Shown: positions 9,605 through 49,678 of the stretch, in pieces
Position numbering within the stretch: position 1 is the stretch's first letter
Layout of the letters: each line of letters opens with the position of its first letter
Assembly (NCBI GenBank): GCA_023487765.1
Contig: JAMDBW010000052.1
Coordinates: forward strand, 1-53,428
Source of the DNA: Thermoplasmatota archaeon
Lineage (GTDB): Archaea; Thermoplasmatota; Thermoplasmata; Thermoplasmatales; Thermoplasmataceae
Reading direction: 5' to 3'
Length of the DNA: 53,428 nt
The notes under the pieces: generated by a model
Told to the model about the DNA's origin: nothing
The model's database searches: none
What the model saw: the letters and a program-made list of their open reading frames with translations, nothing else
Translations under genes and position numbers: made by a program

Positions 9605-9847
9605 ATGGGGCGCACCATACCAACTATGAGGCAGAGCATGGAAATCCTTTCGGCAAGGATTCAGAAGATGTCGCAGATAATGAGATCGGAGGACATCGAC
9701 CTGATCAGCAGCATGATGCTTAAGGGCAGGAAACATGCGCATGAAATCTCATATTCCGGCCTTGATACGGAATTCGGGTTTATTCTGTCAATTCTTCTGG
9801 AGATGGAAAAAGAGCTGAAACGCATCCGGGAGTCCATGGATGGATGA
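9605..9847 (+). CDS. Hypothetical small helical protein (80 aa), overlaps the PolB2-like start by 8 nt
   Basis: The ORF has coding-like codon usage. Its stop (9845-9847) overlaps the polymerase ATG (9840), which suggests translational coupling. Confidence 0.4.
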   Translation: MGRTIPTMRQSMEILSARIQKMSQIMRSEDIDLISSMMLKGRKHAHEISYSGLDTEFGFILSILLEMEKELKRIRESMDG

Positions 9848-12989: not shown

Positions 12990-14669
12990 TCAGGCATTGC
13001 TGATGGATGCAAGGGTCGAAAATTCGGCATTTCGTTCGATACCCCATCTCTTCACTTTCTCTATGTCAACGCCATTCTTCCTGGCTACAGATTCTATATA
13101 TTTCAGCATCATGAATCCTCCGCCGGAAATTATTGATCCGGTGCCAAGCCTTGTCACGAAGTTTCCGCGGGAATCCCTGTAGCCATCTCTTGCAGCCATC
13201 TTCGCCAGGTGCCTGTATGAAGCGTAATAGACTGCGAGCTGGTTTTCCGTAAGCATATTCCTGTTCAGGCTCCGAGACTTTATCCTTCCAAGAGGAACGT
13301 TTACGAGAGGAGTGACTGTGAATTCGAATGGTCTTCCGCCTGCATAGGAGTTGCTGAGCCTGTTAATCATGGCTATGGTGTCCCATTCGTCCTCTGCAGT
13401 TTCACCCTCCTGGCCAACCTGAACAGTGAACGCCGGTCTCCAGTAGTTCATGGTCTCAACGTGGACACCCTGCCATACTATTTCCTGCCAGCTTCCGTCC
13501 GGGCCAATCCTGAGCGGCATGGTCTTGTTCGGCATGTGTTTCAGGGCCAGATTATCACTCCCGGTTTCCACACCTGTCTGGACGCCAATCCAGTTCGACG
13601 GACCGGCCCTGAGGATTCCGGATAGCTTCTCCATCATTTCCGGGTATGCGGCGGGTATTGAAATCCTGCCGTGCGTCGGATTGGCAGTTTCCACCCCCCT
13701 GATTGCGGTAACAGATCTGAACAGTTCCTCAAGTGCTTCCTCATTGGGGATGAACCTGTTCCCATGTTTGTAGCCGAATATCTCGTCAGAATGCAGCCAG
13801 GCATTGGTCAGGCCTGCGTTGGCATTTGTCCGGACCTCGCTGGTTATTCTGTCAAGGGAGTTATATCTCAAAGGTCTCAGCGTCACCTCACAGAAATCGC
13901 AGCCCACTCCACAGCCCCGCATAACCTCAACCATGCCCTTGTTGGCAGGTCCGGCTATTTCCGGTATGTCCTCAATTCTCGGATACGAGGGCCCGGCAAT
14001 GCCCCTTGTTATGAACAGGTCATCATTTTTCTGTATTCGCCTGAAGCTGCCGTCATAGGTAACGTATCCCCTCCGGAATACCGTGCCGTCTATGCTGCCC
14101 TCACTGATCTGTTCAAACAGCAAGTCGGCAATGTCATCAATTTCCCCCTGGACAATGTAATCAAAATTGTATTTCTCTATCTCATCTCTCAAGACAGTGA
14201 ATTCCCAGACTCCCGGACCGCCGACGACGAGTTTCGCTTTCTTTCCCGATCTGATGACATTGATCTTCCCGATAAGTGAATCCCACTCTTTCCTTACCCA
14301 TGCCATCATTTCTCCGCCGAAGAGTGCGTGATATGACATCGTGGTCGGGCCTATGCCAAGCGGATCCATGGTTGTAACTCCTATTATCTCTGTATCGTCG
14401 GTTATGAAGCGATCAAGGTAATCCTCGTGAGCCACGACGACTTCATTTCTTTGAAATTTTCTGAGCAGTGACGCTTCAAGCTTCCTCAGCCCGTAGGGGG
14501 CAAAGACGGCCTCGCCACCGGGATGTGAAGGCGGAAGAGAACCTCTGAGAAACCTGTATATCGGCGCCGGTATCGCTTTGCCGGGGGCACTCGGAAGAAA
14601 ATCCAGCAAAGGAAAATTCCGGTATTCATAGCTCAGGGTTGAATCGGAAACCAAAACAAATCGTGTCAC
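12990..14669 (-). CDS. Radical SAM protein with N-terminal B12-binding-like domain
   Basis: 559-aa ORF with a CxxxCxxC cluster in 'VEVMRGCGVGCDFCEV'. The N-terminal Rossmann-like region is typical of COG1032-type radical SAM enzymes. Confidence 0.8.
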   Translation of the reverse strand: MTRFVLVSDSTLSYEYRNFPLLDFLPSAPGKAIPAPIYRFLRGSLPPSHPGGEAVFAPYGLRKLEASLLRKFQRNEVVVAHEDYLDRFITDDTEIIGVTTMDPLGIGPTTMSYHALFGGEMMAWVRKEWDSLIGKINVIRSGKKAKLVVGGPGVWEFTVLRDEIEKYNFDYIVQGEIDDIADLLFEQISEGSIDGTVFRRGYVTYDGSFRRIQKNDDLFITRGIAGPSYPRIEDIPEIAGPANKGMVEVMRGCGVGCDFCEVTLRPLRYNSLDRITSEVRTNANAGLTNAWLHSDEIFGYKHGNRFIPNEEALEELFRSVTAIRGVETANPTHGRISIPAAYPEMMEKLSGILRAGPSNWIGVQTGVETGSDNLALKHMPNKTMPLRIGPDGSWQEIVWQGVHVETMNYWRPAFTVQVGQEGETAEDEWDTIAMINRLSNSYAGGRPFEFTVTPLVNVPLGRIKSRSLNRNMLTENQLAVYYASYRHLAKMAARDGYRDSRGNFVTRLGTGSIISGGGFMMLKYIESVARKNGVDIEKVKRWGIERNAEFSTLASISNA

Positions 14670-24885: not shown

Positions 24886-27441
24886 ATGGGAAAACTTACG
24901 GGTCTAATTCTGGGAGTTAGTGCTGCACTCTTCATGGCATACTACGTACTGGCTTCGGCCTATGTGCAGTTAACAGACTGGTTAAGTCCCGTATTGGGCC
25001 CGTCGTTTTCCCTAATGCTGTCGCTTCTGTACCTGCTCCTGGGAAATCCCGTGAATCATCCGGTTCTCTTCGCTGTGTGGATCACCGTGGGTGCCGTCAC
25101 AGGGATAGGGGCAAGGAGGGGCGGAAGAGCGGCAGGGGCTGCTTTCACCACTTATATGATTATCTGGTCATTCCTGTCACTGACAGTGATGTCCATGCTT
25201 CTCGGCGCCGGTCTTGGTTCTCCTTCGGGAACGGGGTTCGCAGGAGGCATCGGAGGGTTTCCGCCGCTTCCGCCCGGAACCAGCATATCATCTATTCTGA
25301 CGGAACCTCTTATGCAAAGGCTGATCCAGTTGTTTGGCATGATTGGAAGCCTGTCCGGATTAACCGGACTCCCGCTGACCAGCTATGGTTCCCCGGCTCT
25401 CACCGGTAGCGTCCTGACACCTGTTGCGGGCCTTATTCCGGGCATAATATCACTTTTTCTCCCTTACCTCATCTTAAACTTCGTGATACTGGTACTGACT
25501 GCATACTTCACGGGAAGGGTACTGCACCTCATCATTGAACCGCGGGGACAGAACGGAAACGGCGGGAATCACAATGGAAGGGAAAAGAAAAAATCGCAGA
25601 AAGTCAGGAAAGTCAGGGTGAAAAGAGTCAGGCAGGCACGCTATGCTATGTTCGTAGCATCCCTGTTCGTTTTCTCAGCCATTGCGCTTCAGCTGGGAAA
25701 TGCCGGATATGCCCAGATCGACTCTTCGGGACTGGCACACGCAGTACATTACAACTCGGATTCCGTAGCAGCAGGCTCGCCGGGAAACACTTCGGCAGAC
25801 ACTTACCTTAACCTGTTCAAGACCCTAAGCACCGTAGGCCCGAACACTGTCAATACAACGCGGATCGGAAACCAGACCCAGCTGTATTACTCTTCAGGCA
25901 TTGTGGGAACCTACGGGAACGTTTACAACACGTACGGATTCCTCGGTGAGTTAAACTCGACAACCGGGTGGGAAGCTTCACAGCAGGCTAAATCTTCCCT
26001 GTTCACAATAGTCGCGGTATCTGACAACTTAAGCTCCCTGATCAGCGGCATCTCGCAAAACGGACTGTCAGCCGGATCATCATCTACTGCAGGCAATTTC
26101 CTTGGAGCCATACCACGGCTGGTGATCATAAGTGCATATTCCGGAAATCAGGCGCAGACAGAGCCATCCGCCAACAGCGTGGCGGTACAGATCGTAAACG
26201 CAACTGGAGGACACAGCCTCATCAAGCTGTTATCGTTTACAGGCGGAAACGGGCTATTCGGTGCATCCGGCGGCAATGTATCCATATACATATATTCAGC
26301 TGATGCCAGTCTGTATCCCGCAGAAAACGGTCTAGCCGGGCAAATGAGCACCAGTTTCAACGGCAGTGGAATACTGGACCTTTTCAGGAACGGAATGTCT
26401 TCCGGATATCTCGTGCCGGGTTACACGCCAGCCAGCGTTGACGCGTCATTCTTCATTTCCGGAGTGATCAACGTCCGGAATCTCAGCCTTCCGATCCCCT
26501 CATTCTCCGGCGTCCAGCTTAACAGCAGCGTGGTAAAATACACCAATGTTGCATTCATGGGTGGATTTTTCAACAAAAACTATGTTTTACACTCATCTTC
26601 ATCCCGGCACAATATCAGCGCGGCCGCTATTTTCGATTACAAAGGAAATATTACTTTTGCAAATCCGTCCGTGGTATATGCACTGAGCCTGGCGTATCCG
26701 AACGAAACCTCCAGCGGCTCGGGATCGCTTTCAGGCATATACCGGATATTTACATTCACCACAATACCGGGAAACAACAACACGACCAGCGTGACTGGAA
26801 ATAACACAGTTATAGTGAAACCATACGGTTCAGCGATAAACCTGTCAAACCTGACCATTGAAACCAACGCGACGTTCCCTGCAAATATGCCGATCACGAT
26901 ATCGGTAAATATGACCAATAAAACCGCAGCCAGGATCATTACAACTGTCACGGTGAATGACAGCGACACTGTGACAAACTTGAGTATAAACCAAAGCAGT
27001 ATACTGTCTTCCTACAGTTCCTCTGTCATGTTGACATCCGGCAAAATTTCGTCGGGAAATATATCTTCACTTGGCCCGAATCAAAGTGTGCAGCTCAAAT
27101 TCGAGCTTTATTTTAAGAATCCGGGATCTTACGTTATCCTGAGCCCCATGGTCACATATACCATGAACAACAGAACTTTCACGGTTACCGGGAGTCCGCA
27201 GGTTGTTGCTATAGCCAACCCTCCCCTGATCACGAGCATAAACAATATGGAGAAAAACTCGGCAGCGGTAATATCAACGGTGATACATAACCGCATTCTG
27301 ACTGAACAGATATTCCCCGGCTTCTACGTGTTCGACCTGATACCTCTGCTGATAGTCCTGGTGGATATCCGCATAGAATACAAGTCATTCAGGAAATGGC
27401 TTATGCTGAGAAAAGGGCAGACGGGACAGCTACCACCGTGA
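24886..27441 (+). CDS. Large polytopic/surface protein: N-terminal multi-TM Gly-rich domain plus sequon-rich ectodomain plus C-terminal TM
   Basis: 851-aa ORF with about 5 N-terminal TM helices. A Lys/Arg-rich stretch is followed by a signal-like segment (..RYAMFVASLFVFSAIALQLGNAGYAQ). A long Ser/Asn/Thr-rich region has many NxS/T sequons. The C-terminal TM helix is FYVFDLIPLLIVLV. Confidence 0.6.
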   Translation: MGKLTGLILGVSAALFMAYYVLASAYVQLTDWLSPVLGPSFSLMLSLLYLLLGNPVNHPVLFAVWITVGAVTGIGARRGGRAAGAAFTTYMIIWSFLSLTVMSMLLGAGLGSPSGTGFAGGIGGFPPLPPGTSISSILTEPLMQRLIQLFGMIGSLSGLTGLPLTSYGSPALTGSVLTPVAGLIPGIISLFLPYLILNFVILVLTAYFTGRVLHLIIEPRGQNGNGGNHNGREKKKSQKVRKVRVKRVRQARYAMFVASLFVFSAIALQLGNAGYAQIDSSGLAHAVHYNSDSVAAGSPGNTSADTYLNLFKTLSTVGPNTVNTTRIGNQTQLYYSSGIVGTYGNVYNTYGFLGELNSTTGWEASQQAKSSLFTIVAVSDNLSSLISGISQNGLSAGSSSTAGNFLGAIPRLVIISAYSGNQAQTEPSANSVAVQIVNATGGHSLIKLLSFTGGNGLFGASGGNVSIYIYSADASLYPAENGLAGQMSTSFNGSGILDLFRNGMSSGYLVPGYTPASVDASFFISGVINVRNLSLPIPSFSGVQLNSSVVKYTNVAFMGGFFNKNYVLHSSSSRHNISAAAIFDYKGNITFANPSVVYALSLAYPNETSSGSGSLSGIYRIFTFTTIPGNNNTTSVTGNNTVIVKPYGSAINLSNLTIETNATFPANMPITISVNMTNKTAARIITTVTVNDSDTVTNLSINQSSILSSYSSSVMLTSGKISSGNISSLGPNQSVQLKFELYFKNPGSYVILSPMVTYTMNNRTFTVTGSPQVVAIANPPLITSINNMEKNSAAVISTVIHNRILTEQIFPGFYVFDLIPLLIVLVDIRIEYKSFRKWLMLRKGQTGQLPP

Positions 27442-27719
27442 CATGACGAGGTACGGTTGCGGACAGCACACAAAGGTCCAGTGACTGAACAGGCATCGCC
27501 GGGTCTATCCTGACGGCTAAAACTGAAATATAGGCCGCGGCCTCGTTTATCATTGTAGAGTGACTGATGTTTCCAGTATTATTCAAGGATACAGGTTGAA
27601 TCTCCTATAGAATTCAACGTCAGTATTTACCTTCCCCGGTTCAGCCTTTCTCCCGTATTTTTGTGACTCTCCAGGCTGGTAAACCAGACATGACTGCAAG
27701 CATCACATTTTGAAAACGT

Positions 27720-28205
27720 CTATTGCAGATATACTGCCGAGATCAAAAAAGCACCCTCAGGTTTTCCAAAGAAATTACCATCGGGGTAGACAGTTAGCTC
27801 ATACCTTTCGTTGCTGTACGTATGAAAACAAAAGCTCCATTCATCATTACCGAAATATCGAAGCCGGCACAGATGAACGGGAGTATTTCTGAGGCGCTCA
27901 GCATACTCTTCCAGCGTTTCCGGCCAGTCTTTTGAAAGCGGCAGATCATATACTTCATGCTCCTGATATGCATCGATGTAGCAGAAACAACCTCTGAACC
28001 GGATGTCCAGGCGCGTATACTTTCCTTTGTAATTATCATTCGCGACTTTTTCAATGCGACTTATCACGTCCCTCTTTACAGTTTCCGGAATCGCTATTCC
28101 TCCGGCATTTGGATCAAAGTACCACATTCTGCCTGGCATGATCACCATCTCCGCAAGTCTTGCATCTTCACCACAACAATATGAATCATCTTTCCCATCT
28201 CTCAA
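27720..28205 (-). CDS. DUF3024-like hypothetical protein
   Basis: 161-aa ORF. 'LDIRFRGCFCYIDAY...PVHLCRLRYFGNDEWSFCFHTYSNERYE' resembles the DUF3024 pattern as I recall it (..ARLRY....W.LYW.....H.Y). It overlaps the upstream gene by 20 nt, and the true start may be the internal 'MVIMPGRMWYF'. Confidence 0.5.
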   Translation of the reverse strand: MRDGKDDSYCCGEDARLAEMVIMPGRMWYFDPNAGGIAIPETVKRDVISRIEKVANDNYKGKYTRLDIRFRGCFCYIDAYQEHEVYDLPLSKDWPETLEEYAERLRNTPVHLCRLRYFGNDEWSFCFHTYSNERYELTVYPDGNFFGKPEGAFLISAVYLQ

Positions 28206-28758
28206 AATTACTCTTTACAAACATGTCCATCTCGTCAGGAAGCGAGGGATCCCTGTTTATTTTCCGCCATTCCTCAAGAACCTGCTCGAAGTTATTCTTT
28301 GGAACATCAGTGACCCAGTCCTGAAACTCCGAGGTGGCTTCTACTTCAAATCTGTAAATTCCTTCCAGTATTCCCATACAATGCAATTTGGCTTCCCTGT
28401 AAAGGGAGAGCTTGTGGCATTTTCTCATTTCCTCAAGATAAGGTTCTAATGCTTCCTCAAACATGTCTGATGCCAGCTCGTAAGGATCAATGTACCCATA
28501 TCTCGTCCTTCCTGAGTTTTGCCAGACATCTTCAACCTCAATGCCATTCAGGCTCAAAAAAACTTCATCGGCAATTACATCTGGTTCGATTTCCGAAAGA
28601 TATTCACGTGCAAGTACATTTGCCCGTTTCGAAATATTTGCATCTTCATTTGCAAGCCTTTTCAGAATTTCAAGTCCCTGGCTTGGGCTCAGTTCTTCAA
28701 GAACGCTGCTTTTCCCGGCAGCGGGCGGAGAAGGAAATTTGCCTGTTTTTCCTGTCAT
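28186..28758 (-). CDS. Hypothetical acidic alpha-helical protein (190 aa)
   Basis: The ORF has coding-like composition and I recognise no motif in it. It sits upstream of, and overlaps, the DUF3024-like gene. It is transcribed divergently from the PLD/ATPase gene. Confidence 0.5.
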   Translation of the reverse strand: MTGKTGKFPSPPAAGKSSVLEELSPSQGLEILKRLANEDANISKRANVLAREYLSEIEPDVIADEVFLSLNGIEVEDVWQNSGRTRYGYIDPYELASDMFEEALEPYLEEMRKCHKLSLYREAKLHCMGILEGIYRFEVEATSEFQDWVTDVPKNNFEQVLEEWRKINRDPSLPDEMDMFVKSNFERWER

Positions 28759-28948
28759 ATTTACTTTTTCATGCTCTCAGAGGATTAAATATTTCTCATG
28801 GCATCGAAAACCCGCCTTTTTCAATTTTTGGCAAGGAATGGTATTTTTTCTTCCCGTCGTTATTTTCCGGTCCTCGAAATAGTGGATGTGCTGAGACCAT
28901 AACTTAAGGGGTGTACTGCTTCTATCTATTTTTAAGTATATCAATGGC

Positions 28949-30916
28949 ATGTCATCCTGCTATAGGGGAAAAATGTCAGGAAGGGATCTCAACAACTCGG
29001 GTTTCAGCACTTTCATTGCCGGTAATGAGGCTGAACTCGAGGCACATTTCTCTGGATTCAGTGCACTGAGAGCAGTTTCCTATGTTGTTTCAATAAAGTG
29101 GATTCTGGAGTTTCTGGAAAGAAATCAATTTGAAAGCATCGAGATCGTGGTGGGAAAGGAGGTTTCCGATCTAAACCCCGCCGAATTGCTTAAGGATGAG
29201 GTTGCAAGCGATAAGGGAAATCTTGCCTGTCAAATCCTCGGGATGATGGAGCAGGGAAGGTTGAAGATATACACCTCGGATCGTATTGTGCATTCCAAGT
29301 TCTACATTTTAACCGGCAGAGGGGCTATAAGGGTTATTCAGGGCTCAGCTAACCTGACCACGTCAGCGAGGAAAGGGAAACAGGTGAACTATCTCTGGAA
29401 GTGGGATCTGGAACCCGGAGCTGACAAGTCGCTTATTGAGAGATTCAACGCAGATTATGAGCTGCACAAGAAATATTGCTCTCTATTCATGCAGGATCTC
29501 CAGGATATGCTCAAGGAAGCAGGAGATGAAGATAGGGAAAGGGTGCTCAATAACTGGCTTGGAAGAAATGTTGAGCCACAGGAAATCGGGATAATGCCCA
29601 TGCTCACGCAGATGGCCACAGAGGTCCTGGTCGGTGACAGCGGCGAACCGGTATACCGGATGATGCTGCCTGCAGAACCATCAAAACGAAAACCCATAGA
29701 ACAGTTCCTCCGGCCCGTAAAACACGAAATAGAATCATCTCAAATAGTCTTCCTGAAAAAGGATTTCCTTAACAGCGAAAATCTGTTTGTCCCAATAATG
29801 CGGGTGGATTTTGAAAATCACAGAATAGTCTTCAACATCAGGGCCGAAAAAATCACAGTAGGTGATGCCACACCTCCCGGTGAGGAAGTGAACACATGTC
29901 TGGCCAATATTGAGGAGTACATCAAATCTATCGACATGGGCAAGACAAGGAACAGGACAATCAACAACATGACCAAGATGAGCGTATATGAAGGGCTGAT
30001 CTACTTCCTGTCATCACCTTTCCTGAACCAGTATATGAGAATAAAGAGGGCCAAGGTGGGAAGAGTCGATGAAAGGGGTCCGAGATTTCTTTTCATATCG
30101 GGAGGATCAAGCAACGGAAAGACCACTTTTATTAAGTACGCGCTGAAACTTCTGACGGGTAAAGACATCAATCCAATAGACAAATCAAATTTCAGGAAAC
30201 AGAATATTCTCACGGCAGCGGGGCTGGGCACGAATTTTCCCCTCGTTTTTGACGACGTACCTCCCCAGCGGCTGAATTCTTCTGATATGGAAACAACCAT
30301 CAAGAGTTACTGGGAAACCTGGTGGAATGGCCAGAGCATCTTCCCGACAATTATAGTCTCTTCAAATGCCAAGTCTACCAAGGAATGGCACCAGACACGT
30401 GTCAAGACTCTTAATTTCGATGTTCATTTTGAACCTTCAATGAAGGCCAGGGAGAAACTCAACGACATTTTCAATCAGCAGAATAGTATTTTTTCTGCGT
30501 TCGCTTCATATTATTTCACACATTTTAGTGAAGACATATCGGACGATGAACTTGAACATGGGAGAAGAACAATGCTGAGGTTATATGATTACGCCGGCAG
30601 ACAGGTACCGGAATATTTCCCAAAAGCGCCGGTGGAAACAATTTATGATCCCGACAGGCTAAAATGGCGTGAACTCATAGACCTTGGAAAGGTCAGCATC
30701 GTGGAAAAGAACGACTCGATGGAGTTAACATTTCTGGAGGGATTCAACCGATCCGATGTGGAGCACTATGCTGATTCCATCAGACACGCAAAACACCGAA
30801 TAGTCGGAAATACTATTATAATAGAAAGCCCGGAGGACTTTCGGAAGTGGCTGGGGCTGGAGGAGAATGCCAGTCCGGGAATATTTGAAAAACTGTTCAG
30901 GAGGAGGAACAGGTAA
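28949..30916 (+). CDS. PLD-family (HKD) nuclease domain fused to SF3/D5-P4-type P-loop NTPase
   Basis: 655-aa ORF. The N-terminus has a single HKD-type motif 'IVHSKFYILTGRGAIRVIQGSANLTTSA' (HxK...GSxN). The C-terminal half has Walker A 'FISGGSSNGKTTFIKYALKLLTG', Walker B 'FPLVFDDV' and an SF3 motif-C-like 'TIIVSSN'. An alternative start at 28973 sits about 35 nt downstream of a TATA-like 'TTTTTAAGTATAT'. Confidence 0.7.
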   Translation: MSSCYRGKMSGRDLNNSGFSTFIAGNEAELEAHFSGFSALRAVSYVVSIKWILEFLERNQFESIEIVVGKEVSDLNPAELLKDEVASDKGNLACQILGMMEQGRLKIYTSDRIVHSKFYILTGRGAIRVIQGSANLTTSARKGKQVNYLWKWDLEPGADKSLIERFNADYELHKKYCSLFMQDLQDMLKEAGDEDRERVLNNWLGRNVEPQEIGIMPMLTQMATEVLVGDSGEPVYRMMLPAEPSKRKPIEQFLRPVKHEIESSQIVFLKKDFLNSENLFVPIMRVDFENHRIVFNIRAEKITVGDATPPGEEVNTCLANIEEYIKSIDMGKTRNRTINNMTKMSVYEGLIYFLSSPFLNQYMRIKRAKVGRVDERGPRFLFISGGSSNGKTTFIKYALKLLTGKDINPIDKSNFRKQNILTAAGLGTNFPLVFDDVPPQRLNSSDMETTIKSYWETWWNGQSIFPTIIVSSNAKSTKEWHQTRVKTLNFDVHFEPSMKAREKLNDIFNQQNSIFSAFASYYFTHFSEDISDDELEHGRRTMLRLYDYAGRQVPEYFPKAPVETIYDPDRLKWRELIDLGKVSIVEKNDSMELTFLEGFNRSDVEHYADSIRHAKHRIVGNTIIIESPEDFRKWLGLEENASPGIFEKLFRRRNR

Positions 30917-30958
30917 TGTCCTGACTCTCAATTTATACGGGAATCATGTGGTGGTATT

Positions 30959-31519
30959 ATGAAAAGCGGAATTACTGCAATATACAGGTTCAAGGTTGCA
31001 TTGAAGGGCAGACGAGGCATCTGGCGCCGCATAGAAATCAGGGGAGACCAGACACTTGCTGACCTGGACAGGATTATACGAATTGCCTTTAATCATGACA
31101 CATGGGATCACCTCGGGGAATTTTATTCCGGAAAGCCCTGGTATCGATCAGGTTATGGAGAAATCAATCCGAATGGAGGAGGCGAAGGGGCGAAGATCCC
31201 GATAGCCTCCTTAGGGTTACAGGAGGATGACAGGATAGGCTATGTATACGATTTTGGCTCCGAAATCCATCACTACGTCACTCTTGAGAGCATGTCGGAA
31301 AGTACGGATCCTGCAGCCAGATATCCCCTTATTGTATCACGAAACAATCCGAGGTACAAGTATTGTGTGGAGTGTGCGGCGTCCGGCAAGAAAAATGTCG
31401 CAACTCAGGTCTGTCTCGATTGCTCTACCGAAGATGGCTCTGAACCCGAATATATCTGTGAGGACTGTGGATATGCAGACAAGCATGAGGAACATTTTCT
31501 TGAAGATATTGTGTATTGA
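30959..31519 (+). CDS. MM3350-like (plasmid pRiA4b ORF-3 family) domain protein with C-terminal Cys-rich zinc finger
   Basis: 186-aa ORF. 'YRFKVALKGRRGIWRRIEIRGDQTLADLDRIIRIAFNHDTWDHLGEFY' matches the PRiA4_ORF3/MM3350 N-terminal signature. The C-terminus has CxxC-x12-CxxC-x11-CxxC-x5-HxxH. Confidence 0.7.
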   Translation: MKSGITAIYRFKVALKGRRGIWRRIEIRGDQTLADLDRIIRIAFNHDTWDHLGEFYSGKPWYRSGYGEINPNGGGEGAKIPIASLGLQEDDRIGYVYDFGSEIHHYVTLESMSESTDPAARYPLIVSRNNPRYKYCVECAASGKKNVATQVCLDCSTEDGSEPEYICEDCGYADKHEEHFLEDIVY

Positions 31520-31632
31520 GCCATTCATGACTCCGAAGAACGGTAGAGGTAATACCTTTTGGAAGGTTTATGAACAAGGCTTGAAATACTGCATTACACA
31601 TCATGTCACAGAAGGAGTAATTACGCCGATTC

Positions 31633-32826
31633 GTGTTTGCAACTACAGATTGGGAGGAATGCATCCTGGGCGATAACAAGAGACCGGACAGCAGGGAATC
31701 TAATTCGAGTTCTATAACCAGAGAGGACGTACCGAACTTACCAGTGATCAGGGAAATGATACAGAAGGACATCGACTACTCCCAGGCTTTATTCGAGTAT
31801 GCCCAGGAGTACTATGACAGGGAGTGCAGGCTGTATGCTTATGAATGCCCGGACAACACAGACCTCTCCGCCGAACTGCGCTATAAACAAATCTACTTAT
31901 GGTTCATCACCGAAAAGGTCCTGCCTTCCAGAGGTCGTACTGTTCTGGAGGAATTCGTGGAGAAATACATTGCCCCAAAAGATCCGGAGGTTGCAAAAAG
32001 GTTACTTCGGTCAAAGAGCATGATAAGGGGTTCCTTTAAGGTTCTCGACGTAACATATTACCCCTGTGTACTCGTGGATCATCTGGAATCCGGGAAAAGA
32101 TATCTTGCCGTTACCAAGATTCCTCCATCGCCACAGGCGAAAGAGACATTTCTCCCTGAGAAGGTAATAAAAGGAAAAATTCATCCATGGTGGGATAAGT
32201 ACTTCATTTTTGACGGGATTCTGACCAGGGAGCCAACGCGTGAAGAAATTGCCAGTCAAATGGGGTTCATCTTTGATCCCGGCATAATTATGGAGCGATA
32301 CGAGAGTGATCAGATCAGAAAATTTGAGTCAATATCGCTAAATCTTAAAACAACGCTCTCATCTGCGTTTAACAAATATCCGTCACAATGGGTTGACGGA
32401 ATGTGTTCGGCATCCGGTATCAGCATAAAGCAGGTAAGAACTAAACGAGACAAGATCGATGCTCTTGTTTCCAAGCTTGAAAATGGATATGCTGATTACC
32501 TTCTCAGGGAGAGATTCACGGAGAAGCAGATTGCTATCCTGGAAATGCTTCACAGAGGTGGCTGGGTCCTGAAATATGGTCAACTGACAAAACAATTTTC
32601 ATCGGAAACAACTTTCTGGTGGGTTGAGGATCCTCCAACATCTGATATCGGCGTTCTGCGATTGCATGGATTTATTGTAATCGGCAAACTCCCCGAGGGA
32701 GGAAAGCACTATAAGGTGGCTGTTGTTCCGGTTGAGTTAAGATCCACGGTCAAAAACTTCCTCACTGCCAGGGCAAAGTATCCATCACGTCATCTACGCT
32801 TGAGACCTACCGGGTCATGTCAATGA
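31633..32826 (+). CDS. Hypothetical protein (up to 397 aa)
   Basis: Long ORF on the same strand as its neighbours. The track start is a GTG, and the first ATG is at 31756 ('MIQKDIDY'). I recognise no catalytic motif. The C-terminal part (..EKQIAILEMLHRGGWVLKYGQLTKQF..) could be a wHTH. Confidence 0.5.
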   Translation: MFATTDWEECILGDNKRPDSRESNSSSITREDVPNLPVIREMIQKDIDYSQALFEYAQEYYDRECRLYAYECPDNTDLSAELRYKQIYLWFITEKVLPSRGRTVLEEFVEKYIAPKDPEVAKRLLRSKSMIRGSFKVLDVTYYPCVLVDHLESGKRYLAVTKIPPSPQAKETFLPEKVIKGKIHPWWDKYFIFDGILTREPTREEIASQMGFIFDPGIIMERYESDQIRKFESISLNLKTTLSSAFNKYPSQWVDGMCSASGISIKQVRTKRDKIDALVSKLENGYADYLLRERFTEKQIAILEMLHRGGWVLKYGQLTKQFSSETTFWWVEDPPTSDIGVLRLHGFIVIGKLPEGGKHYKVAVVPVELRSTVKNFLTARAKYPSRHLRLRPTGSCQ

Positions 32827-33106
32827 ACGGGACTTGAGCAAGGGTCATGAAAATACCGGAGAAACATAGTTTTCCCGCCCGCCAGTGAGTAGACTTGCAA
32901 ATAACTCACATAAATTGAGTGTGAAGAAAACCGCTCAGGGTCGGACTTGTTTTGACAGGCATTCAGGCAAATGACCTGCCCGTTCGTAGTAGCCATAACA
33001 TGGGGGCACAAGTCTTCAAAAAGATCGAAGAGTGTTGATCAGGCCATTGAGATGGTGACAGGCATATATGTAATTTCAGGGGATAGAACGGAAACATCCT
33101 GAGACA

Positions 33107-34994
33107 GTGGAACCCGTAACAAAGGAAAACAGGAATTTTATCGCAATCCCGGACTTAAGGGTATACTTGCCTCCCGCTGATTCGCAAACAATCGGGATAA
33201 ATGCCCGGTTTCAGGATATCATTATTTTGTACTGCGGACAAAGGGAGTGCATATTAAACTGGAAAGGATCAGATGATGGTGGGAGCATACCAAAGAATCC
33301 GGGAATGAGAGATTTTGTGGATCAAGTCAGGGAGAAGCTGGAAACGTATTCACCAGAGACGGTGAAGGATATTATCATAAGGTGGGCCATTAGCACCCCT
33401 CCGGGAAAGAGAATTGAATTTCTGGACAGACTGACCCACTTATCTCCGAAGGAAAACACGCACATTGGCGGCCCAGAACTCATTGATGAGATAAACGGGC
33501 TTGCAAAACGCGTCGAGAACGGAAATTACGGTGAGTACAGGGGAGAGGATGATTATCCCTACGGCGAGGATTTCAGCGATGAAAGTTGGGCTGATGAAAT
33601 CGACACATTCATGGAAGATGCCCGCTCCAATATGAAATCCGGCAGCTACGCGCTGGCTCGCGACGCATACAGTATGTTATTCAGGATTCTGGAATCAGGC
33701 GAAGAATCAGGTCACCTTCCCGGGAACTATGATCCTGCCAGTATGCTCAGTACAGACTTGAACGAAGCCCGCTCCTGTTACCTGTTGTCCGTCTATTTCA
33801 CGTCACCGCCTGAGATGCGTCCGGTGAACTTATATGAAGGTATGCAGCGATTTGCTACTCTTGTCGGGGATGATCTGAACCTCAGGTCAATGAAAAGTGC
33901 AGGATTAGAAATTCTTCCGGATTTCGACGAATTCCTGGAAGCGTGGATTGAACTGCTGAGAGGCAAAAACTCCACGTTCACCCGTTATCTTCTGCGCGAG
34001 GCTGTTATCTTATCCGGAGGCATAAATGCCATAGCGGAACTGGCACAAAAAACTGGTAGTGAACATCCCAGTGCATACATCGCGTGGATTGAGATGCTGG
34101 AGAAAGAAGGGAATTTCGTGGATATGGCAAGAGCAGCTGAGAAAGGACTTGCCAGTGTACCGGGCGATTATGTCAGGAGAGCTGAAATCGGAGAATGCCT
34201 GGTCAGAGCCGGAGAACATCTTGGCAACATAGATTTACAGATTTCCGGCTCCCACGAAGCATTTTATTCTTTTCCCTCTCTGAAAAATCTTTTGTCGTTA
34301 TTACTCATTGCAGAAAAGCAGAATGGCTACTATGGAGAGATCGAGGCAGCAATTAGCAGGATAGATTCGCTGATTCGAGATAAGAGGAAAAACAATGTGC
34401 CTGTATCAATGGAAGATGAGGAATCCTCGAAGTCTTTTGCAGGTGACAGTTTACTGGTTCAAACTTTTCTGCTCGGCGGGCGCTATGAGGACGCCTTTAA
34501 TTCCATTATTTCGAAACCTTCCGCTGGGCTGGAGCTATGGCGACAACCAAAAAGGACTCGTACTGGCATTCTTCCTGAAACTACTTGCAGGAGAGAAAGA
34601 TGCACATTCTGCATCTAACATCGAACGGCTATGGGAAGATTCTACAGGGCACACTGGCTTTTTATTCATGGATCAGGAAGGGATTGCCAAAAGATTCGGC
34701 ACGGCAATGGATAAGATATTTCGTTCTGCAAAGCTCTCAGACGATGAAAAAGTGAAGTACACAAAATGGTGCGTTGAAGAAACCGGCAAGAGGACTGACG
34801 CAATAGTCGGAGGGAAACACCGGAATAGTTACAATAAGGCCGCCGTCGTGCTTGTCGCATGTGCTGAAATGCTCAGTAAACATGGAGAGCGATCAGCTGG
34901 TAAGGAACTGGTGGAAGGATATCGTTCAAAATATAACCGCCATTCTGCGTTTCAGGGTGAACTTCGGAACGCTTTGAGGATCGCCAGTCTTTAA
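33107..34994 (+). pseudogene. Large helical-repeat protein (~629 aa) interrupted by a +1 frameshift
   Basis: Two overlapping ORFs (33107-34618 and 34395-34994) read as one protein if the frame changes near 34500-34520: ...GGRYEDAFNSIISK | LPLGWSYGDNQKGLVLAFFLKLLAGEK.... After that point the first frame becomes basic and Cys-rich nonsense (RQPKRTRTGILPETTCRRERCTFCI*). Confidence 0.55.
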
Positions 34995-42970: not shown

Positions 42971-43419
42971 ACAGCCACTTTAGCTTAGGCGTTGTAATAT
43001 CCGCATTTTATAAGCATTCTCTTTTCTCATTTCTCGTGGGCATCGCATTCTATTAGGTTTATTGAAAATCAAGTGAGATGCATGAACAGAAAAGAAGAAA
43101 CGCTGTATGTGCCTGACGACACTGAGATTCAGGCAGCGAGAAAGGAAGGATACCAGAGTGGCTGGAACGACAGGAAATAATTTGATTCCGACCTCAATGA
43201 AGACGCAATAAACCAGAGCAGGGACTTCAGGGAATTAGCAATACAGCTGAAAGAGGGATCGGGGAAGACTAGAGAAACGAGTCAGTGAACCGTTTTGACA
43301 TGGAATTCTGGAATGGAGGATTGAAAGTGCTTATTCTCGTCGCAGAAAAGCTTTCGGAATTGGAAAGAAAAGGATCTCGTAAATAGGGAAGGGGAGGGCG
43401 CAACCTAGACTACATGGTA

Positions 43420-43494
43420 TGCTCCGACCGGGATTCGGACCCGGGTCGTCGGCTCGAAAGGCCGAAATGCTTGGCCGGACTACACCATCGGAGC
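43420..43494 (-). tRNA. tRNA-Glu (anticodon UUC)
   Basis: The minus strand reads GCTCCGA TG GTGT AGTCCGGCCAA GCAT T TCGGC CTTTCGA GCCGA CGAC CCGGG TCCGAAT CCCGG TCGGAGC A. This folds as a full 75-nt cloverleaf with a 7-bp acceptor stem and a 5-bp anticodon stem around loop C-U-UUC-G-A. There is no intron. CCA is not encoded directly after the discriminator (trailer TACCA). Confidence 0.92.
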
Positions 43495-43518
43495 AGAACA
43501 CTCCCTAAACTCACATTC

Positions 43519-45919: not shown

Positions 45920-48900
45920 TCATTTTTTTTGAGTTGCCATCATTATGTACGTCCTTCCGTCAGGATCGCTCTTGAATTTTATTATCCCCTGATCATTCAG
46001 TCTGGACATGGCTTTCCTGATGACTTTCGAGTCGATTCTCTCTCGCCTTGCCTCTGATATTATGGTGTGTTTTTCAGCTCCTGCATTCTTAAGAATCAGT
46101 TCTCTTGCCATTTCCATATCCTTTATGCTCGTGACCCTTCTGCGATAGATCAGGATACTGACGAAGACCAGAATAAGCAACTCTGGAATGAACCCGGGTA
46201 CGAAAATGTGGTAACTCTTTACAATCTCGGTTGAATGATATTGCACGATGAGGGTAATATTGTGGTATCCAGGCATTATAAATGTGAAAAAGCTGGCACT
46301 CCTGCTGGCTGTGTGTCCATCCACCAGCCAGGTCAGGTTTATTGGCTTGAGATTAATCCCGGAAATACCGGAGGAGAAGAACGAGACGCCCATGAACATA
46401 TCAAGCCGCGGGGCAATTCCACTGATGTCAGAGAAATAGTAGTTGCTGAACCTGACCGTTGAACTTACATTTCTGTTGCCGCTCCTGTCAACTGCAGCAA
46501 CCGTAACATTGAAGGTGCCGTCGCGGGTGAGGTTTAATATAAAAGATCCGGAGGAATACAGTGTTCCGGCGTCCAACGTTTTGTTGTCCAGGCTGACTTG
46601 AATCCCTGACAGCGGAACCTGATCGACGATGGAGTAGTCAACGATCGCATAATGCGTCCATATGAGCGTACTGTTTTCTGCAGACACCATTATTTCCGGT
46701 TTGGAGTTCGAATAATATACCGTGACAACTGACGTATTGCTGTTCCCCCACGCGGATGTTGCGGTCAGTCGCAATGTATTGTTGAATCCGGGGACGCTGA
46801 TGTTTTCGCCTGATTTGCGCAGCATTCCGGAAAACCGGGTTCCGTTTCCGGATATCGTGTAATTATAGGTCACATTCGGGAGAAGCCTGATACTGAGCGG
46901 GAAGTAGCTTGAATTTGTGTATGAAGTCCCGTTTAATAGCGGGTTTACGGGTATTGTGTTATTCAGGTCGATGTAAAAAATCTCTGAGGTTCTCTCTCCG
47001 CTCAGATCTACTGCAGTGACGTTCATAATGTAGATTCCGTTTCCCTGAAGATTGAAATCGGCAGGATCAATTACAAAACTCCCGAAGTTTCCCGCAGATG
47101 AAAATGTCTCCTTTTCTCCTCCCGGCGAAGTGATGTTCAGGAATAACGATGAAGTAACGTTTGAGGTCACGTTGATCTGCATTCGATCGAGGTTCGAATT
47201 TCCGGAGAATGAATAAAAATAACCCGTCGTCCGGTTTACGCTGATCTCCGGGGAATAGTTCTCAACGGTCACATATTCATTGCCCACAGAAGTGAAATTT
47301 CCATCGAGGAGCGTGGCATTGAGGAATATCCTGTAAGAACCGTCAGGTAATTCCAGTAACGAAAAGTTCTGTGAAGTATTGTAGGCCAGCCGATGTCCGC
47401 TTGAAACGACAGTCAGGCAGTAATAGCTATGATATGCGACCTGTTTCCAGCTGAAATTGAATTTGTTGAAAGGCAGGTATGAATTGTTATTAATATTTGC
47501 AGAGAAATTCGTTATTTCACTATGGACAACATTGTATTCGAATCTGTATGCCCTCAAAATACCAAACTGATCCTTCAGATCAAGGGTGAGATTCATGACG
47601 CTTGTGTTGGAGGTTCCCGTGAAATTAAACGCATTTCCTGTAAACGAATAGTTGAAAAAACCAGACGATACGCTGGAATACAACTGGCCGGAGATGTTGC
47701 TTATGGATATGCTGAATAACTGATCCTGGGAAATATACGACATATTTCCCGGATCAATTTTAATCGCGGGTTTGTAGTTGTCAACATGCACCTTCTTTAC
47801 CAGCGAAAGTGTGTAACCTGCGTCGTTGGTGGCATTGAGATAGAGGAGACATGTTCCGTTTCCTATTTCTGTGCTTGAGAAATTCAGGTAACCATTCAAA
47901 GGGGCGATGGTTAAATTTCCAATTTGCGAGCTCTCAGTGCAGTTCAGCCCGGAGGAAATACTGTAATTGAAGGAGACGTTTCCGGTCAGTACTGAAGGGC
48001 CGTTCAGGCTTCCGTTGATTGAGTATCCGGAGAACGGGAACTTCCCGGCAAAGAATATCGACAAATAACTGCCGTTCGCAAGGAATCCGAATGAGAGATT
48101 ACCCTCGAAATAAGCATATGCGGCTGTTCCGGGCAGATTAGTATCGTGCGTTATGTTTCCGGAGACTACTTCCATGGTGCTTCCGGATGAAATTACGCTT
48201 AACTCAGGATCGGACCACAGGGGAGCTGTTGAAGCGGCCTGGATGGCAACCGGGGAATAAATGCTGTTTCCAAAGAGATATCCGCCGGGAATATTATTTC
48301 CCGGATGAATTTCCGAGCTGAAGCAATTGGACAGATTTGACGAAGCCGTTATGACAGTGGAAGTATCAAACATCTGTGCGTTGTACAAATTGCTATTTTC
48401 CGACAGGGAACCGCTGGCATCGAGACTGTAGTTTGATATTTCCCTGGAACTTGAGTTCATGGCCATAAGGATAATCTGCTGATTCTGGACGGACGACAGG
48501 ATCACTTTCTGTTCGAAGTCAGAGGAAATGTTTGCCCATCGGCTGACGCTACCGGTCGCATTATAAATCCAGACTTTGCCGCTCTCGTTGATAAGGAAAA
48601 AATTCATGCCGAGGACAGTGAGTTTCGGGGAGTCTATCTTTATTGGTCCAAAGTTGTATTTCACAACAGAGAGTGAAGTGGTGTTTATCCTGAACAGATT
48701 AGAATTATCCTGAAATAAAACGAAGAAGTACGCATAATTCCCGTCGGAATATGAAGCAGCCCAATCTGCACTGTTTGAAATATTTGCCAGGATCAGCGTG
48801 GTATTGTTATAGTAATTGAAGAGATAAATTCCCGGCATCTTCCCTGTCTCCATGAACATGATGCTGTTCAGTTTCCAGTCAGCAACAGGATAAGCTCCGA

Positions 48901-49678
48901 AGGTGCCATTTCCCGTCACGTTGCGGTGCGTGTTGAATTTCTGGACATTGTAGGTAATGGATGGTCCCGGGCCGAGGATACCGAATCCGGGCGTGCCGTG
49001 CGCCAGATAAATGTTGTATATTGTGGCATTTGAGAAACCGCCTCCAATGACTGCCTGCAGGGAACCGTTCCTGAAGGTGCCGTTCAAATTTATCGAATAC
49101 GGGAGACCTGATGTCGAATTCCATCCTCCCGTGATTCCAAAATATCCCGTTTTCCCGCTGTCAGGCACTGAAAGCTGAAGCGTGTAAAAAGAAGAGAAAG
49201 CAGGAGTACTGCCAAGATCGTATGAACCTGTTCCGTTCACGTACGCCGAGGTGTGGTACAAAGGACCGAATGCAAGATTCAGCAGCCTGCTGTTATTCTG
49301 TTCAAATATCATATTGTCCCATGTCAGTGCCTCATTATTCCTGTAATTCCATGAGAACGTAATCTTCAATGTGAAATTGGACGGGACACTCATGTTCATG
49401 GTCAGAAAACTGTTTTTGCTTGTTGTTGCAGGTTGTGTGGATATCTGTAAACCCTGTCCTATTGAGGTTTTGTTAATCCTGGCATAGGATAAGGAATTCA
49501 TGGAGGATTCGAAGGTGATCCAGCTCCTGTTCGACGGGAAGGTGCCGGGAGAAAGGCTGGAGAAGTTATAGTCCGATACAGGGATTCCTTGTGGAATTGT
49601 TGACCCGTAACTACTGTTTAGGGTTATTCCCGATAGTATAATTATAATAATTAATACCATAATGCTAATTACTTTCAT
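45920..49678 (-). CDS. Giant surface protein (1252 aa) with single TM and cytoplasmic winged-helix-like C-terminal tail
   Basis: The ORF has an N-terminal signal/TM segment (ISIMVLIIIIILSGITL) and an ectodomain of about 1150 aa that is extremely rich in N/S/T/Y/F with very many NxS/T sequons. A TM helix (FIPELLILVFVSILIY) is followed by a 74-aa tail: 'RRRVTSIKDMEMARELILKNAGAEKHTIISEARRERIDSKVIRKAMSRLNDQGIIKFKSDPDGRTYIMM'. Confidence 0.65.
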   Translation of the reverse strand: MKVISIMVLIIIIILSGITLNSSYGSTIPQGIPVSDYNFSSLSPGTFPSNRSWITFESSMNSLSYARINKTSIGQGLQISTQPATTSKNSFLTMNMSVPSNFTLKITFSWNYRNNEALTWDNMIFEQNNSRLLNLAFGPLYHTSAYVNGTGSYDLGSTPAFSSFYTLQLSVPDSGKTGYFGITGGWNSTSGLPYSINLNGTFRNGSLQAVIGGGFSNATIYNIYLAHGTPGFGILGPGPSITYNVQKFNTHRNVTGNGTFGAYPVADWKLNSIMFMETGKMPGIYLFNYYNNTTLILANISNSADWAASYSDGNYAYFFVLFQDNSNLFRINTTSLSVVKYNFGPIKIDSPKLTVLGMNFFLINESGKVWIYNATGSVSRWANISSDFEQKVILSSVQNQQIILMAMNSSSREISNYSLDASGSLSENSNLYNAQMFDTSTVITASSNLSNCFSSEIHPGNNIPGGYLFGNSIYSPVAIQAASTAPLWSDPELSVISSGSTMEVVSGNITHDTNLPGTAAYAYFEGNLSFGFLANGSYLSIFFAGKFPFSGYSINGSLNGPSVLTGNVSFNYSISSGLNCTESSQIGNLTIAPLNGYLNFSSTEIGNGTCLLYLNATNDAGYTLSLVKKVHVDNYKPAIKIDPGNMSYISQDQLFSISISNISGQLYSSVSSGFFNYSFTGNAFNFTGTSNTSVMNLTLDLKDQFGILRAYRFEYNVVHSEITNFSANINNNSYLPFNKFNFSWKQVAYHSYYCLTVVSSGHRLAYNTSQNFSLLELPDGSYRIFLNATLLDGNFTSVGNEYVTVENYSPEISVNRTTGYFYSFSGNSNLDRMQINVTSNVTSSLFLNITSPGGEKETFSSAGNFGSFVIDPADFNLQGNGIYIMNVTAVDLSGERTSEIFYIDLNNTIPVNPLLNGTSYTNSSYFPLSIRLLPNVTYNYTISGNGTRFSGMLRKSGENISVPGFNNTLRLTATSAWGNSNTSVVTVYYSNSKPEIMVSAENSTLIWTHYAIVDYSIVDQVPLSGIQVSLDNKTLDAGTLYSSGSFILNLTRDGTFNVTVAAVDRSGNRNVSSTVRFSNYYFSDISGIAPRLDMFMGVSFFSSGISGINLKPINLTWLVDGHTASRSASFFTFIMPGYHNITLIVQYHSTEIVKSYHIFVPGFIPELLILVFVSILIYRRRVTSIKDMEMARELILKNAGAEKHTIISEARRERIDSKVIRKAMSRLNDQGIIKFKSDPDGRTYIMMATQKK

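Follow-up and report, generated by a model that had tools for sequence, protein, structure and literature searches.

Restriction systems of the NgoAVII/CglI type and the Type IV enzyme SauUSI couple a nuclease to an NTP-hydrolysing motor, and in these systems DNA cleavage requires ATP hydrolysis (PMC4267654, PMC4267653, PMC7913695). Nucleases of the PLD (phospholipase D) family have also been listed as partners of catalytically inactive prokaryotic Argonautes (pAgos; PMC6299218). Archaeal immunity beyond CRISPR and restriction-modification (R-M) is poorly mapped, and nearly a third of the genomes from archaea lack another detected system (PMC12988326). Here we analyse a 7.3-kb cluster of six genes, G1 to G6, that lies within a stretch of 53,428 nucleotides (the window; contig JAMDBW010000052.1, GenBank assembly GCA_023487765.1) on an ordinary chromosome of a Thermoplasmata archaeon. 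A sequence-only reading of the window had proposed these genes as one candidate conflict system built around a nuclease/ATPase fusion, G3, and all six open reading frames (ORFs) that it placed in the cluster are present. We read G3 as an uncharacterised member of the ATP-dependent PLD nucleases in defence, on the grounds of sequence, structural modelling and analogy with the enzymes above. For the locus as a whole we favour, with modest confidence, the explanation that it is a small accessory patch with rapid turnover, similar to a defence island and composed of independently travelling modules, in which the key gene G3 encodes a putative autonomous ATP-dependent PLD nuclease.

Domain composition of G3 and comparison with described systems

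The motifs shared by 20 homologues and the structural matches agree, confirming the composition that had been proposed for G3: a predicted single-HKD PLD nuclease fused to an SF3-type (superfamily 3) ATPase. Residues are numbered here on the 655-aa ORF; the start of the gene is most likely the ATG at 28973, because relatives at 94-99% identity are 647 aa long. In the alignment of the 20 homologues the HxK...GSAN residues (H115, K117 and S133-A134-N135) are invariant. G3 matches the PLD consensus HxK(x)4D(x)6G(S/T)xN except for a Leu instead of the Asp four residues after the Lys, and Tdp1-type members of the PLD group are likewise not known to have this Asp. The PLD site appears catalytically competent. 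In the ATPase half the motifs GGSSNGKT (G385..GKT393), FDD (F434-D435-D436), SSN (N473) and R484 are invariant or nearly so, and they follow the SF3 motif order of Walker A, Walker B, motif C and an arginine-finger candidate (R484). The PLD and ATPase motifs are also kept in relatives at 21-28% identity.

Pfam PF27394 (Aq_aa27) is precomputed on nearly all G3 homologues, including the relatives at 60-99% identity (among them those at 94-99%), and the membership of G3 itself in Aq_aa27 is taken from these precomputed matches of its relatives. The family is described by name only, under the NCBI label 'phospholipase D family protein', and we found no literature on it. Looking up the exact sequence of G3 returned no record. 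Other profiles touch only parts of the protein. The Pfam PLDc_2 model scores 19 bits on G3, below its gathering score of 27, and some homologues give weak matches to RE_NgoFVII or Tyr-DNA_phospho. Searching PADLOC-DB v2.0.0 with G3 gave a marginal match to ZacB (E 0.022) that covers the PLD core only, and a PHROG DNA-primase profile matches residues 380-434 weakly. Sequence searches of the PDB, using single proteins and profiles, returned nothing significant for the cluster proteins.

An AlphaFold2 (AF2) model of G3 (predicted local distance difference test, pLDDT, 81.8) has first the PLD domain (residues ~19-175), which a helical linker joins to a small beta domain (~235-305). Long helices forming a collar come next, then the P-loop core (~375-495), and the C-terminus combines helices with a small alpha/beta unit. 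When the model was compared with the PDB using Foldseek, the best matches were the restriction enzymes R.NgoAVII (4rct) and SauUSI (7clg), both with E ~1e-7, followed by the SCCmec Cch helicase (5dgk), Nuc, many Tdp1 structures and Zucchini. All of the PLD-fold matches (R.NgoAVII, SauUSI, Nuc, Tdp1, Zucchini) have a probability of 1.0. In BFVD the ATPase half matches D5-ATPase-helicases, DUF927, VirE, primase-helicases, the mavirus SF3 helicase and a polyomavirus helicase.

The likeness of G3 to NgoAVII/CglI and SauUSI thus resides in the N-terminal single-HKD PLD domain and the small beta domain, and a further likeness to CglI/NgoAVII is that some G3 homologues lie in an operon with a DNA methyltransferase. 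However, the predicted motor of G3 is an SF3/D5-type P-loop ATPase and not an SF2 DEAD/Z1 helicase, and in G3 the motor is part of the same chain whereas in NgoAVII/CglI it is a separate ATPase subunit (DEAD-Z1) beside the R protein. Beyond the PLD core no sequence similarity of G3 to these enzymes was detected. Unlike R-M systems, the cluster has no cognate methylase among its six genes, and no recognisable SRA-type or B3-type specificity domain was demonstrated in G3. PbeA of the Dnd-Pbe system was considered as an identity for G3 and ruled out, since PbeA combines a PLD domain with an SF2 helicase. With HUH-SF3 Rep proteins and primase-SF3 proteins (D5, P4 alpha, DUF927/VirE, SCCmec Cch) G3 shares the ATPase fold, the motif order and the presence of an N-terminal DNA-processing domain; where those proteins have a primase or an HUH nickase at the N-terminus, however, G3 has a predicted PLD nuclease, and its contexts are chromosomal and of defence type, not replicons. 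No named defence system in PADLOC-DB v2.0.0 or NCBIfam matches the cluster, in agreement with the sequence-only reading, and the other five proteins have zero PADLOC matches. Across all six proteins, Pfam, NCBIfam, PADLOC and PHROGs returned nothing beyond the PLD and primase traces of G3 and the PRiA4_ORF3 domain of G4.

By analogy with Nuc, BfiI, NgoAVII and SauUSI, the PLD domains of two G3 chains would pair their half-sites into one catalytic centre. The SF3 module would oligomerise on DNA, translocating along it or remodelling it with ATP, and this motor action would license cleavage of foreign DNA by the PLD domain. If G3 is an ATP-dependent nuclease of this kind, the ATP-dependent restriction enzymes would gain a class driven by an SF3 motor.

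Genomic company of G3 homologues

G3 homologues form 62 clusters, the close ones from Thermoplasmata and those at 33-38% identity from Elusimicrobia and Dehalococcoidia. A scan of 185,579 species genomes, using patterns and tblastn, recovered at least 42 loci, the number being a minimum because of the search patterns used. The family has a sparse and patchy distribution across unrelated phyla and also occurs on plasmids (29 plasmid records), and most of the homologues are chromosomal single genes. Between sister species G3 is 94% identical, against 94-95% for its GT4 and SDR neighbours, which puts purifying selection on the gene on a par with that on the housekeeping genes around it.

For 37 bacterial homologues the two genes on each side were collected (114 flanking proteins, called crudely as the longest ORFs). 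No Pfam family occurred beside more than three of these homologues; DNA methyltransferases were the commonest and the rest were a mixture of defence and housekeeping functions. Apparently conserved 'neighbour families' obtained from an all-against-all BLAST of the 42 loci turned out to be alternative-frame ORFs within high-GC (guanine plus cytosine) G3 genes and were discarded.

Three bacterial loci (L007:3496-11527, L017:6-4272 and L032:6523-14999) carry a large N6-adenine methyltransferase 26-73 nt upstream of the G3 homologue and co-directional with it. The methyltransferases of L007 and L017 have a Type ISP C-terminal specificity domain, and the complete one, that of L007 (1034 aa), lacks both helicase and nuclease domains. 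A helicase-PLD fusion (AAA_11/12) follows in L007 and a HerA-like ATPase in L032. These loci look like split R-M-type systems with the PLD-SF3 protein as cutting subunit. Some of the methyltransferase-linked homologues lie in Dehalococcoidia, and other direct neighbours of bacterial homologues include an SNF2-SWIM helicase and a Type I HsdR.

Haloarchaeal megaplasmids encode full-length G3 homologues (26-32% identity, 79-99% coverage), and in four of the five plasmids inspected a long Piwi gene directly precedes the homologue (Haloferax, Salinigranum, Natrinema and Natrarchaeobaculum; L052:4217-9085, L053:4310-9154, L099:3077-7716, L101:3312-8004). PADLOC scores these Piwi genes as pAgo with E=0. 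The PLD partners match PADLOC profiles through their PLD cores only (ZacB, PLD_Helicase, PbeA, DrmC), and the bacterial G3 homologues give no PADLOC match. The haloarchaeal homologues keep Walker B, motif C and the HKD motif; their Walker A retains GK, with Gly replacing the usual Ser/Thr. In two loci the pAgo and PLD/SF3 pair is followed by UvrD-like, PD-(D/E)XK and helicase genes. This arrangement relates the family to the described pAgo-PLD systems, from which the window differs in having no Piwi gene in the cluster; the protein is not pAgo-linked in this genome or in roughly 40 others. The literature gives the associated nuclease class only as 'PLD', and we found no description there of an SF3-ATPase fusion. 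If the family is an ATP-dependent nuclease, it would offer a testable identity for the 'PLD' partner of haloarchaeal Argonautes.

Overall, the defence-type company of the family comprises pAgo, R-M methyltransferases, HEPN/nucleotidyltransferase (NTase) genes, AbiE and type I cas genes. This context suggests that G3 proteins serve as a plug-in effector for differing sensors, pAgo on the haloarchaeal megaplasmids and motor-less, nuclease-less Type IIG/ISP-like methyltransferases in Dehalococcoidia. Aq_aa27 is of interest as an uncharacterised, predicted single-chain PLD nuclease plus SF3 ATPase that is missing from PADLOC and occurs beside pAgo, beside methyltransferases and alone.

The same distribution bears on whether G3 might be a housekeeping-type DNA repair enzyme that removes protein-DNA or 3' adducts in the manner of Tdp1 with the help of a helicase-like motor, its neighbours being unrelated. 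Some relatives are annotated as tyrosyl-DNA phosphodiesterase and carry the Tyr-DNA_phospho match, Tdp1 is frequent among the structural matches, several bacterial homologues sit among metabolic genes, and selection on G3 is at housekeeping level. We nevertheless give this explanation very little credence, considering that so few loci are scattered over so many genomes, phyla and plasmids, that operons with pAgo and R-M methyltransferases recur, and that the best structural matches are restriction enzymes and not Tdp1.

A replicative function was also weighed, in which the cluster would be a decayed integrated plasmid or virus and G3 its replication or mobilisation protein, a PLD nicking enzyme (acting through a covalent phospho-histidine link) joined to an SF3 replicative helicase, comparable to an HUH-SF3 Rep. 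The ATPase resembles viral and plasmid primase-helicases and SCCmec Cch, to which the weak PHROG primase match may be added; Aq_aa27 is named after an Aquifex plasmid gene; an Arcobacter plasmid carries a G3 homologue beside parAB; and relatives have insertion sequence (IS) elements and pseudogenes around the cluster. However, the Arcobacter plasmid already has its own Rep and DnaB genes, and the mostly chromosomal single genes, some of them in pAgo or DNA methyltransferase operons, fit an effector and not a replicon. The conservation of G3 between sister species likewise equals that of housekeeping genes. In the window, the cluster shows no compositional shift (45.6% GC against 46.8% for the window), searches for direct and inverted repeats found no flanking direct repeats and no element boundary, and the sole tRNA gene (43419-43495) does not adjoin the cluster. 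By scans with Pfam, PADLOC and NCBIfam, none of the six genes is a methylase, cas, Piwi, integrase or capsid gene, as the sequence-only reading had stated, and searches of IMG/VR and of 50,697 phage records matched neither G3 nor G5. Since there is no GC anomaly, flanking repeat, adjoining tRNA, integrase or viral match, an integrated element is not indicated, and we regard this explanation as quite improbable.

Turnover of the locus and the case for a joint G3-G4-G5 system

The proposal of a single six-gene system was tested by asking whether the six families co-occur elsewhere. G4 and G5 accompany G3 in two of the 42 loci, the two closest ones (94% and 67% identity), and G1, G2 and G6 in none; in the 37 bacterial loci the other five families are absent (0/37) and there is no recurrent partner. 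Counting bacteria and archaea together, the G3 family is present in more than 40 genomes that have none of the other five. Because the families do not co-occur in unrelated genomes, the six genes do not travel as a set and the single-system reading fails. What stands of the earlier proposal is that the region is accessory and conflict-flavoured and that the G3 family keeps defence-type company elsewhere.

Comparison with relatives supports the accessory, not core, status of the region, which had also been suggested from the sequence, as gene content differs between this genome and the sister species. Two sister genomes are GCA_021847765.1 and GCA_054608895.1. The sister lineage (L048-L051; 87-88% nucleotide identity) has the same left flank and keeps G2-G3-G4-G5. 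It lacks most of G1 (window 27585-28098 is absent), and its homology ends at window 32703, where IS elements, DUF998 and PIN genes are found and G6 is not. In a further member of the Thermoplasmataceae (L043; G3 80% identical) the context is different, with nucleotidyltransferase/HEPN genes upstream. There an IS607-type pair (serine resolvase plus OrfB/TnpB; L043:12066-13884) lies exactly at the G4 position, G5 is split into ORFs of 175 and 163 aa, and G6 is represented by an intact homologue in inverted orientation, on the opposite strand; G3 is intact. G4 is also fragmentary in L002, where G3 is 67% identical. In L045-47 (G3 60% identical) none of the other five families is adjacent to G3, whose surroundings encode DUF234-type ATPases, Fic, CcdA and a PLD-SNF2-DUF3427 protein. 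In L096, where G5 is 67% identical, G4 is missing and the N-terminus of a G3 gene lies 4.1 kb downstream of G5, with genes for a 658-aa protein, a DUF1186/SEC-C protein and a PIN/VapB pair in between.

These arrangements can also be taken to indicate that G3, G4 and G5, possibly with G6 and G2, form a multi-gene defence system of this Thermoplasmata clade, G1 being unrelated, in which the PRiA4_ORF3 protein G4 and the OB/winged-helix (OB, oligonucleotide/oligosaccharide-binding) protein G5 would sense invader nucleic acid and control the PLD-SF3 nuclease. The three genes lie side by side in one direction, with little space between them, in the window, in L048-L051, in L001 and in L002; G3, G5 and G6 are found together in L043 with another flanking context, and the L096 arrangement represents yet another. 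A G4-G5 pair within type I cas operons, described below, would be compatible with an immune accessory role. The link is nevertheless confined to close sequences. It has disappeared at 60% G3 identity (L045-47, with no G4, G5 or G6 beside G3), G5 homologues at 57% identity or less with usable flanks are all without G3 (0/27 metagenomic G5 loci have G3 nearby), and all 37 bacterial G3 loci are without G4 and G5. Proximity of the three genes is thus restricted to one Thermoplasmata clade, and at long evolutionary distance only the G4-G5 association recurs. Moreover, G3 persists without its supposed partners, being intact in L043 despite the replaced G4 and split G5, and present in L002 beside a fragmentary G4. 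We consider a clade-specific system of this kind possible but doubtful. Its broader form, a three-part archaeal immune system in which the sensor pair is exchangeable and also serves type I CRISPR-Cas while the nuclease-motor also serves pAgo and methyltransferase systems, appears unlikely.

Several observations weigh against the explanation that we favour, that of independently travelling modules around an autonomous G3. In every Thermoplasmata lineage with G3 at 67% identity or above, or G5 at 61% or above, to the window copy, no more than 5 kb separates G3 from G5. This is seen in three arrangements and at least three flanking contexts (window/L048, L002, L043, L096), so that their proximity exceeds simple inherited synteny and could reflect functional coupling. 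G3, G4 and G5 are moreover co-directional, with gaps of 42 and 113 nt. Ordinary metabolic genes flank many of the bacterial homologues, such that the defence role derives from a minority of contexts, and the survey of bacterial neighbours used crude gene calling. The nuclease activity of the Aq_aa27 family is a prediction from sequence, models and analogy, and a solitary nuclease lacking a methylase needs a means of sparing host DNA.

With an autonomous G3 and no sensor partner in the window, the protein would act in a Type IV-like (methylase-less) manner or be regulated otherwise. Modification-dependent, Type IV-like recognition is one guess as to how host DNA might be spared, and control by G4 and G5 is the rival idea. 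The six-gene 'system' is not to be carried forward as a unit; the Aq_aa27 family and the PRiA4_ORF3/OB pair keep their interest.

The G4-G5 pair, the remaining genes and the window

The earlier description of G4 as an MM3350-like protein with a Cys-rich finger is borne out. G4 matches Pfam PF07929 (PRiA4_ORF3) over residues 8-127 (E 4.8e-18, 65.9 bits, cut-off 26.6), and its Cys-rich C-terminal residues 128-181 give weak zf-UBR and DZR matches. The literature on PF07929/MM3350 consists of incidental mentions, with no function assigned to the family. G3 and G4 share a reading frame, the G3 stop and 14 sense codons lying between them (window 30914-30961). This is probably a coincidence, since in the sister lineage their frames differ.

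G5 belongs to a small archaeal family of 28 homologous clusters, none with a Pfam match (0/28), and no plasmid match for G5 was found. The AF2 model (pLDDT 80.4) has an N-terminal helical part and an OB-fold barrel at residues ~131-199, for which the best local Foldseek matches are the OB folds of IF1/eIF1A, weak ones with E ~1e-2 and TM(target) 0.6. A C-terminal helix/strand unit looks like a winged helix in its secondary structure, and G5 probably binds nucleic acid. A 21-nt inverted repeat lies inside the G5 coding sequence, with arms at 32148-32168 and 32495-32515 that are 95% complementary and 326 nt apart.

In three loci with G5 homologues at 35% identity (L058, L059 and L060), a PRiA4_ORF3 gene of 176-180 aa lies directly upstream of the G5 homologue, and the pair sits within type I cas operons, between cas6 and cas8/cas7/cas5/cas3 (L058:218-9830, L059:2629-11347, and L060). 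A PRiA4-type gene is also found near G5 homologues in L087, L088 and L092. Most G5 homologues are without a PRiA4 gene and have integrase-core, nucleotidyltransferase, ATPase_2/MCM_C or TPR proteins upstream. We regard G4-G5 as a two-gene module of its own, probably binding nucleic acid, and its placement in cas operons suggests an undescribed cas-associated accessory pair; no description of a PRiA4_ORF3 plus G5-type pairing, or of its cas-operon placement, was found in the literature. The pair would provide a first lead to what this widespread, functionally unassigned domain does.

A different PRiA4_ORF3 protein of 436 aa, followed by a 530-aa TPR protein and divergent from a 500-aa protein of unknown function, is encoded at L045:873-5697, about 6 kb from the G3 relative at 60% identity. 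It was considered as a counterpart of G4/G5/G6 and rejected, as only the PRiA4 domain is homologous and the G6 profile misses the TPR protein.

Table 1. Positions in the window of the six genes and of the features of G3
Feature	Position	Strand	Remarks
G1	27720-28205	-	ORF extent to TTG at 28205; likely gene 27720..28148
G2	28186-28758	-	ORF, 190 aa
G2/G3 divergent spacer	28759-28972		190 bp to first ATG, 214 bp to likely G3 start
G3	28949-30916	+	655-aa ORF; likely gene 28973..30916
Predicted PLD nuclease domain of G3	29003..29473	+	residues ~19-175 of 655-aa ORF
Putative catalytic codons of G3	H115 29291-29293, K117 29297-29299, N135 29351-29353	+	invariant in alignment
Predicted SF3-type ATPase core of G3	30071..30433	+	residues ~375-495
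Walker A of G3 (G385-T393)	30101-30127	+	
Walker B of G3 (D435-D436)	30251-30256	+	
G4	30959-31519	+	PRiA4_ORF3 domain + CxxC-rich zinc-ribbon-like tail
G5	31633-32826	+	397 aa, without Pfam model
G6	33107-34618 + 34395-34994	+	two overlapping frames; 33107..34994 = ~628 aa, 1-nt insertion near 34525

G1, G2 and G6 are treated as unrelated passengers. G1 belongs to a family with 489 cluster representatives at E<=1e-3 and a typical length of 135-145 aa, whose members align with it only from residue ~23 onward. Its start is for this reason probably M20 or M23 (28148 or 28139) and not the TTG, which finds no support among the homologues, and the 20-nt overlap of G1 and G2 that had been described would become a gap of ~37 nt. 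A relationship of G1 to DUF3024, also part of that description, was rejected, with no match at E<=0.1 for G1 itself or at E<=0.01 for G1 and 31 family members. On Nostoc, Acaryochloris and Halococcus plasmids G1 homologues are solitary genes next to transposases, and one member of the family (P0120, 333 aa) is fused to UPF0158. In one sediment clade, G1-like and UPF0158 genes lie ~2 kb downstream of a G5 homologue, a co-occurrence that is not distinguishable from shared residency in an island. A UPF0158 gene also follows G6 homologues (L062-L064), giving a loose network of unknown-function families with G1 and G5 (L067:2966-3925, L068, L080, L081, L055/L072). Nothing relevant was found in the literature on UPF0158 and DUF3024.

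G2 is acidic (pI 4.6), as had been noted, and divergent from G3. It has no match in Pfam, PADLOC, NCBIfam, PHROGs, the PDB or plasmids, and the only homologue found is the 79% identical gene at the equivalent place in L048-L051, the sister lineage; G2 is a lineage-restricted orphan. For G6, the frameshift reported earlier corresponds to a single inserted G, as seen by comparison with an intact 628-aa protein from another assembly (P0091), which is 100% identical over 94% of the query. Distant members of the family give a faint TPR_14 match, and G6 is treated as a helical, TPR-like passenger or pseudogene, inactivated unless the insertion is an assembly error. Elsewhere (L061-L065), G6 homologues are solitary in housekeeping surroundings, precede a UPF0158 gene or follow a type I cas operon.

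The spacer between G2 and G3 is AT-rich, as the sequence-only reading had observed (37% GC at 28759-28948), and is presumed to hold promoters in both directions. The flanking genes are also as it described them: on the left an Asn/Ser/Thr-rich surface-type protein of 851 aa without a Pfam match (24886-27441, plus strand), and on the other side a DLH-family (dienelactone) hydrolase. The window further encodes arginyl-tRNA synthetase (ArgRS), dehydroquinate (DHQ) synthase, a GH15 glucoamylase, a PolB-like protein, Orc1/Cdc6, a GT4 glycosyltransferase, threonine synthase, a GHMP kinase, a Ta1207-family protein and an eRF1-like protein, and the closest relatives come from Thermoplasmata/Thermoplasmataceae metagenome bins.

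Two further large ORFs in the window, at 45920-49678 (minus strand, 1252 aa) and 12990-14669 (minus strand, 559 aa), are without a Pfam match. The Orc1/Cdc6 gene (11830-12951, minus strand) is convergent with a 671-aa ORF (9840-11855) that it overlaps by 26 nt, and this ORF has only a partial match to family-B DNA polymerases, over residues 297-444. The segment 9840-12951 may represent an origin-proximal region or an inactivated PolB paralogue.

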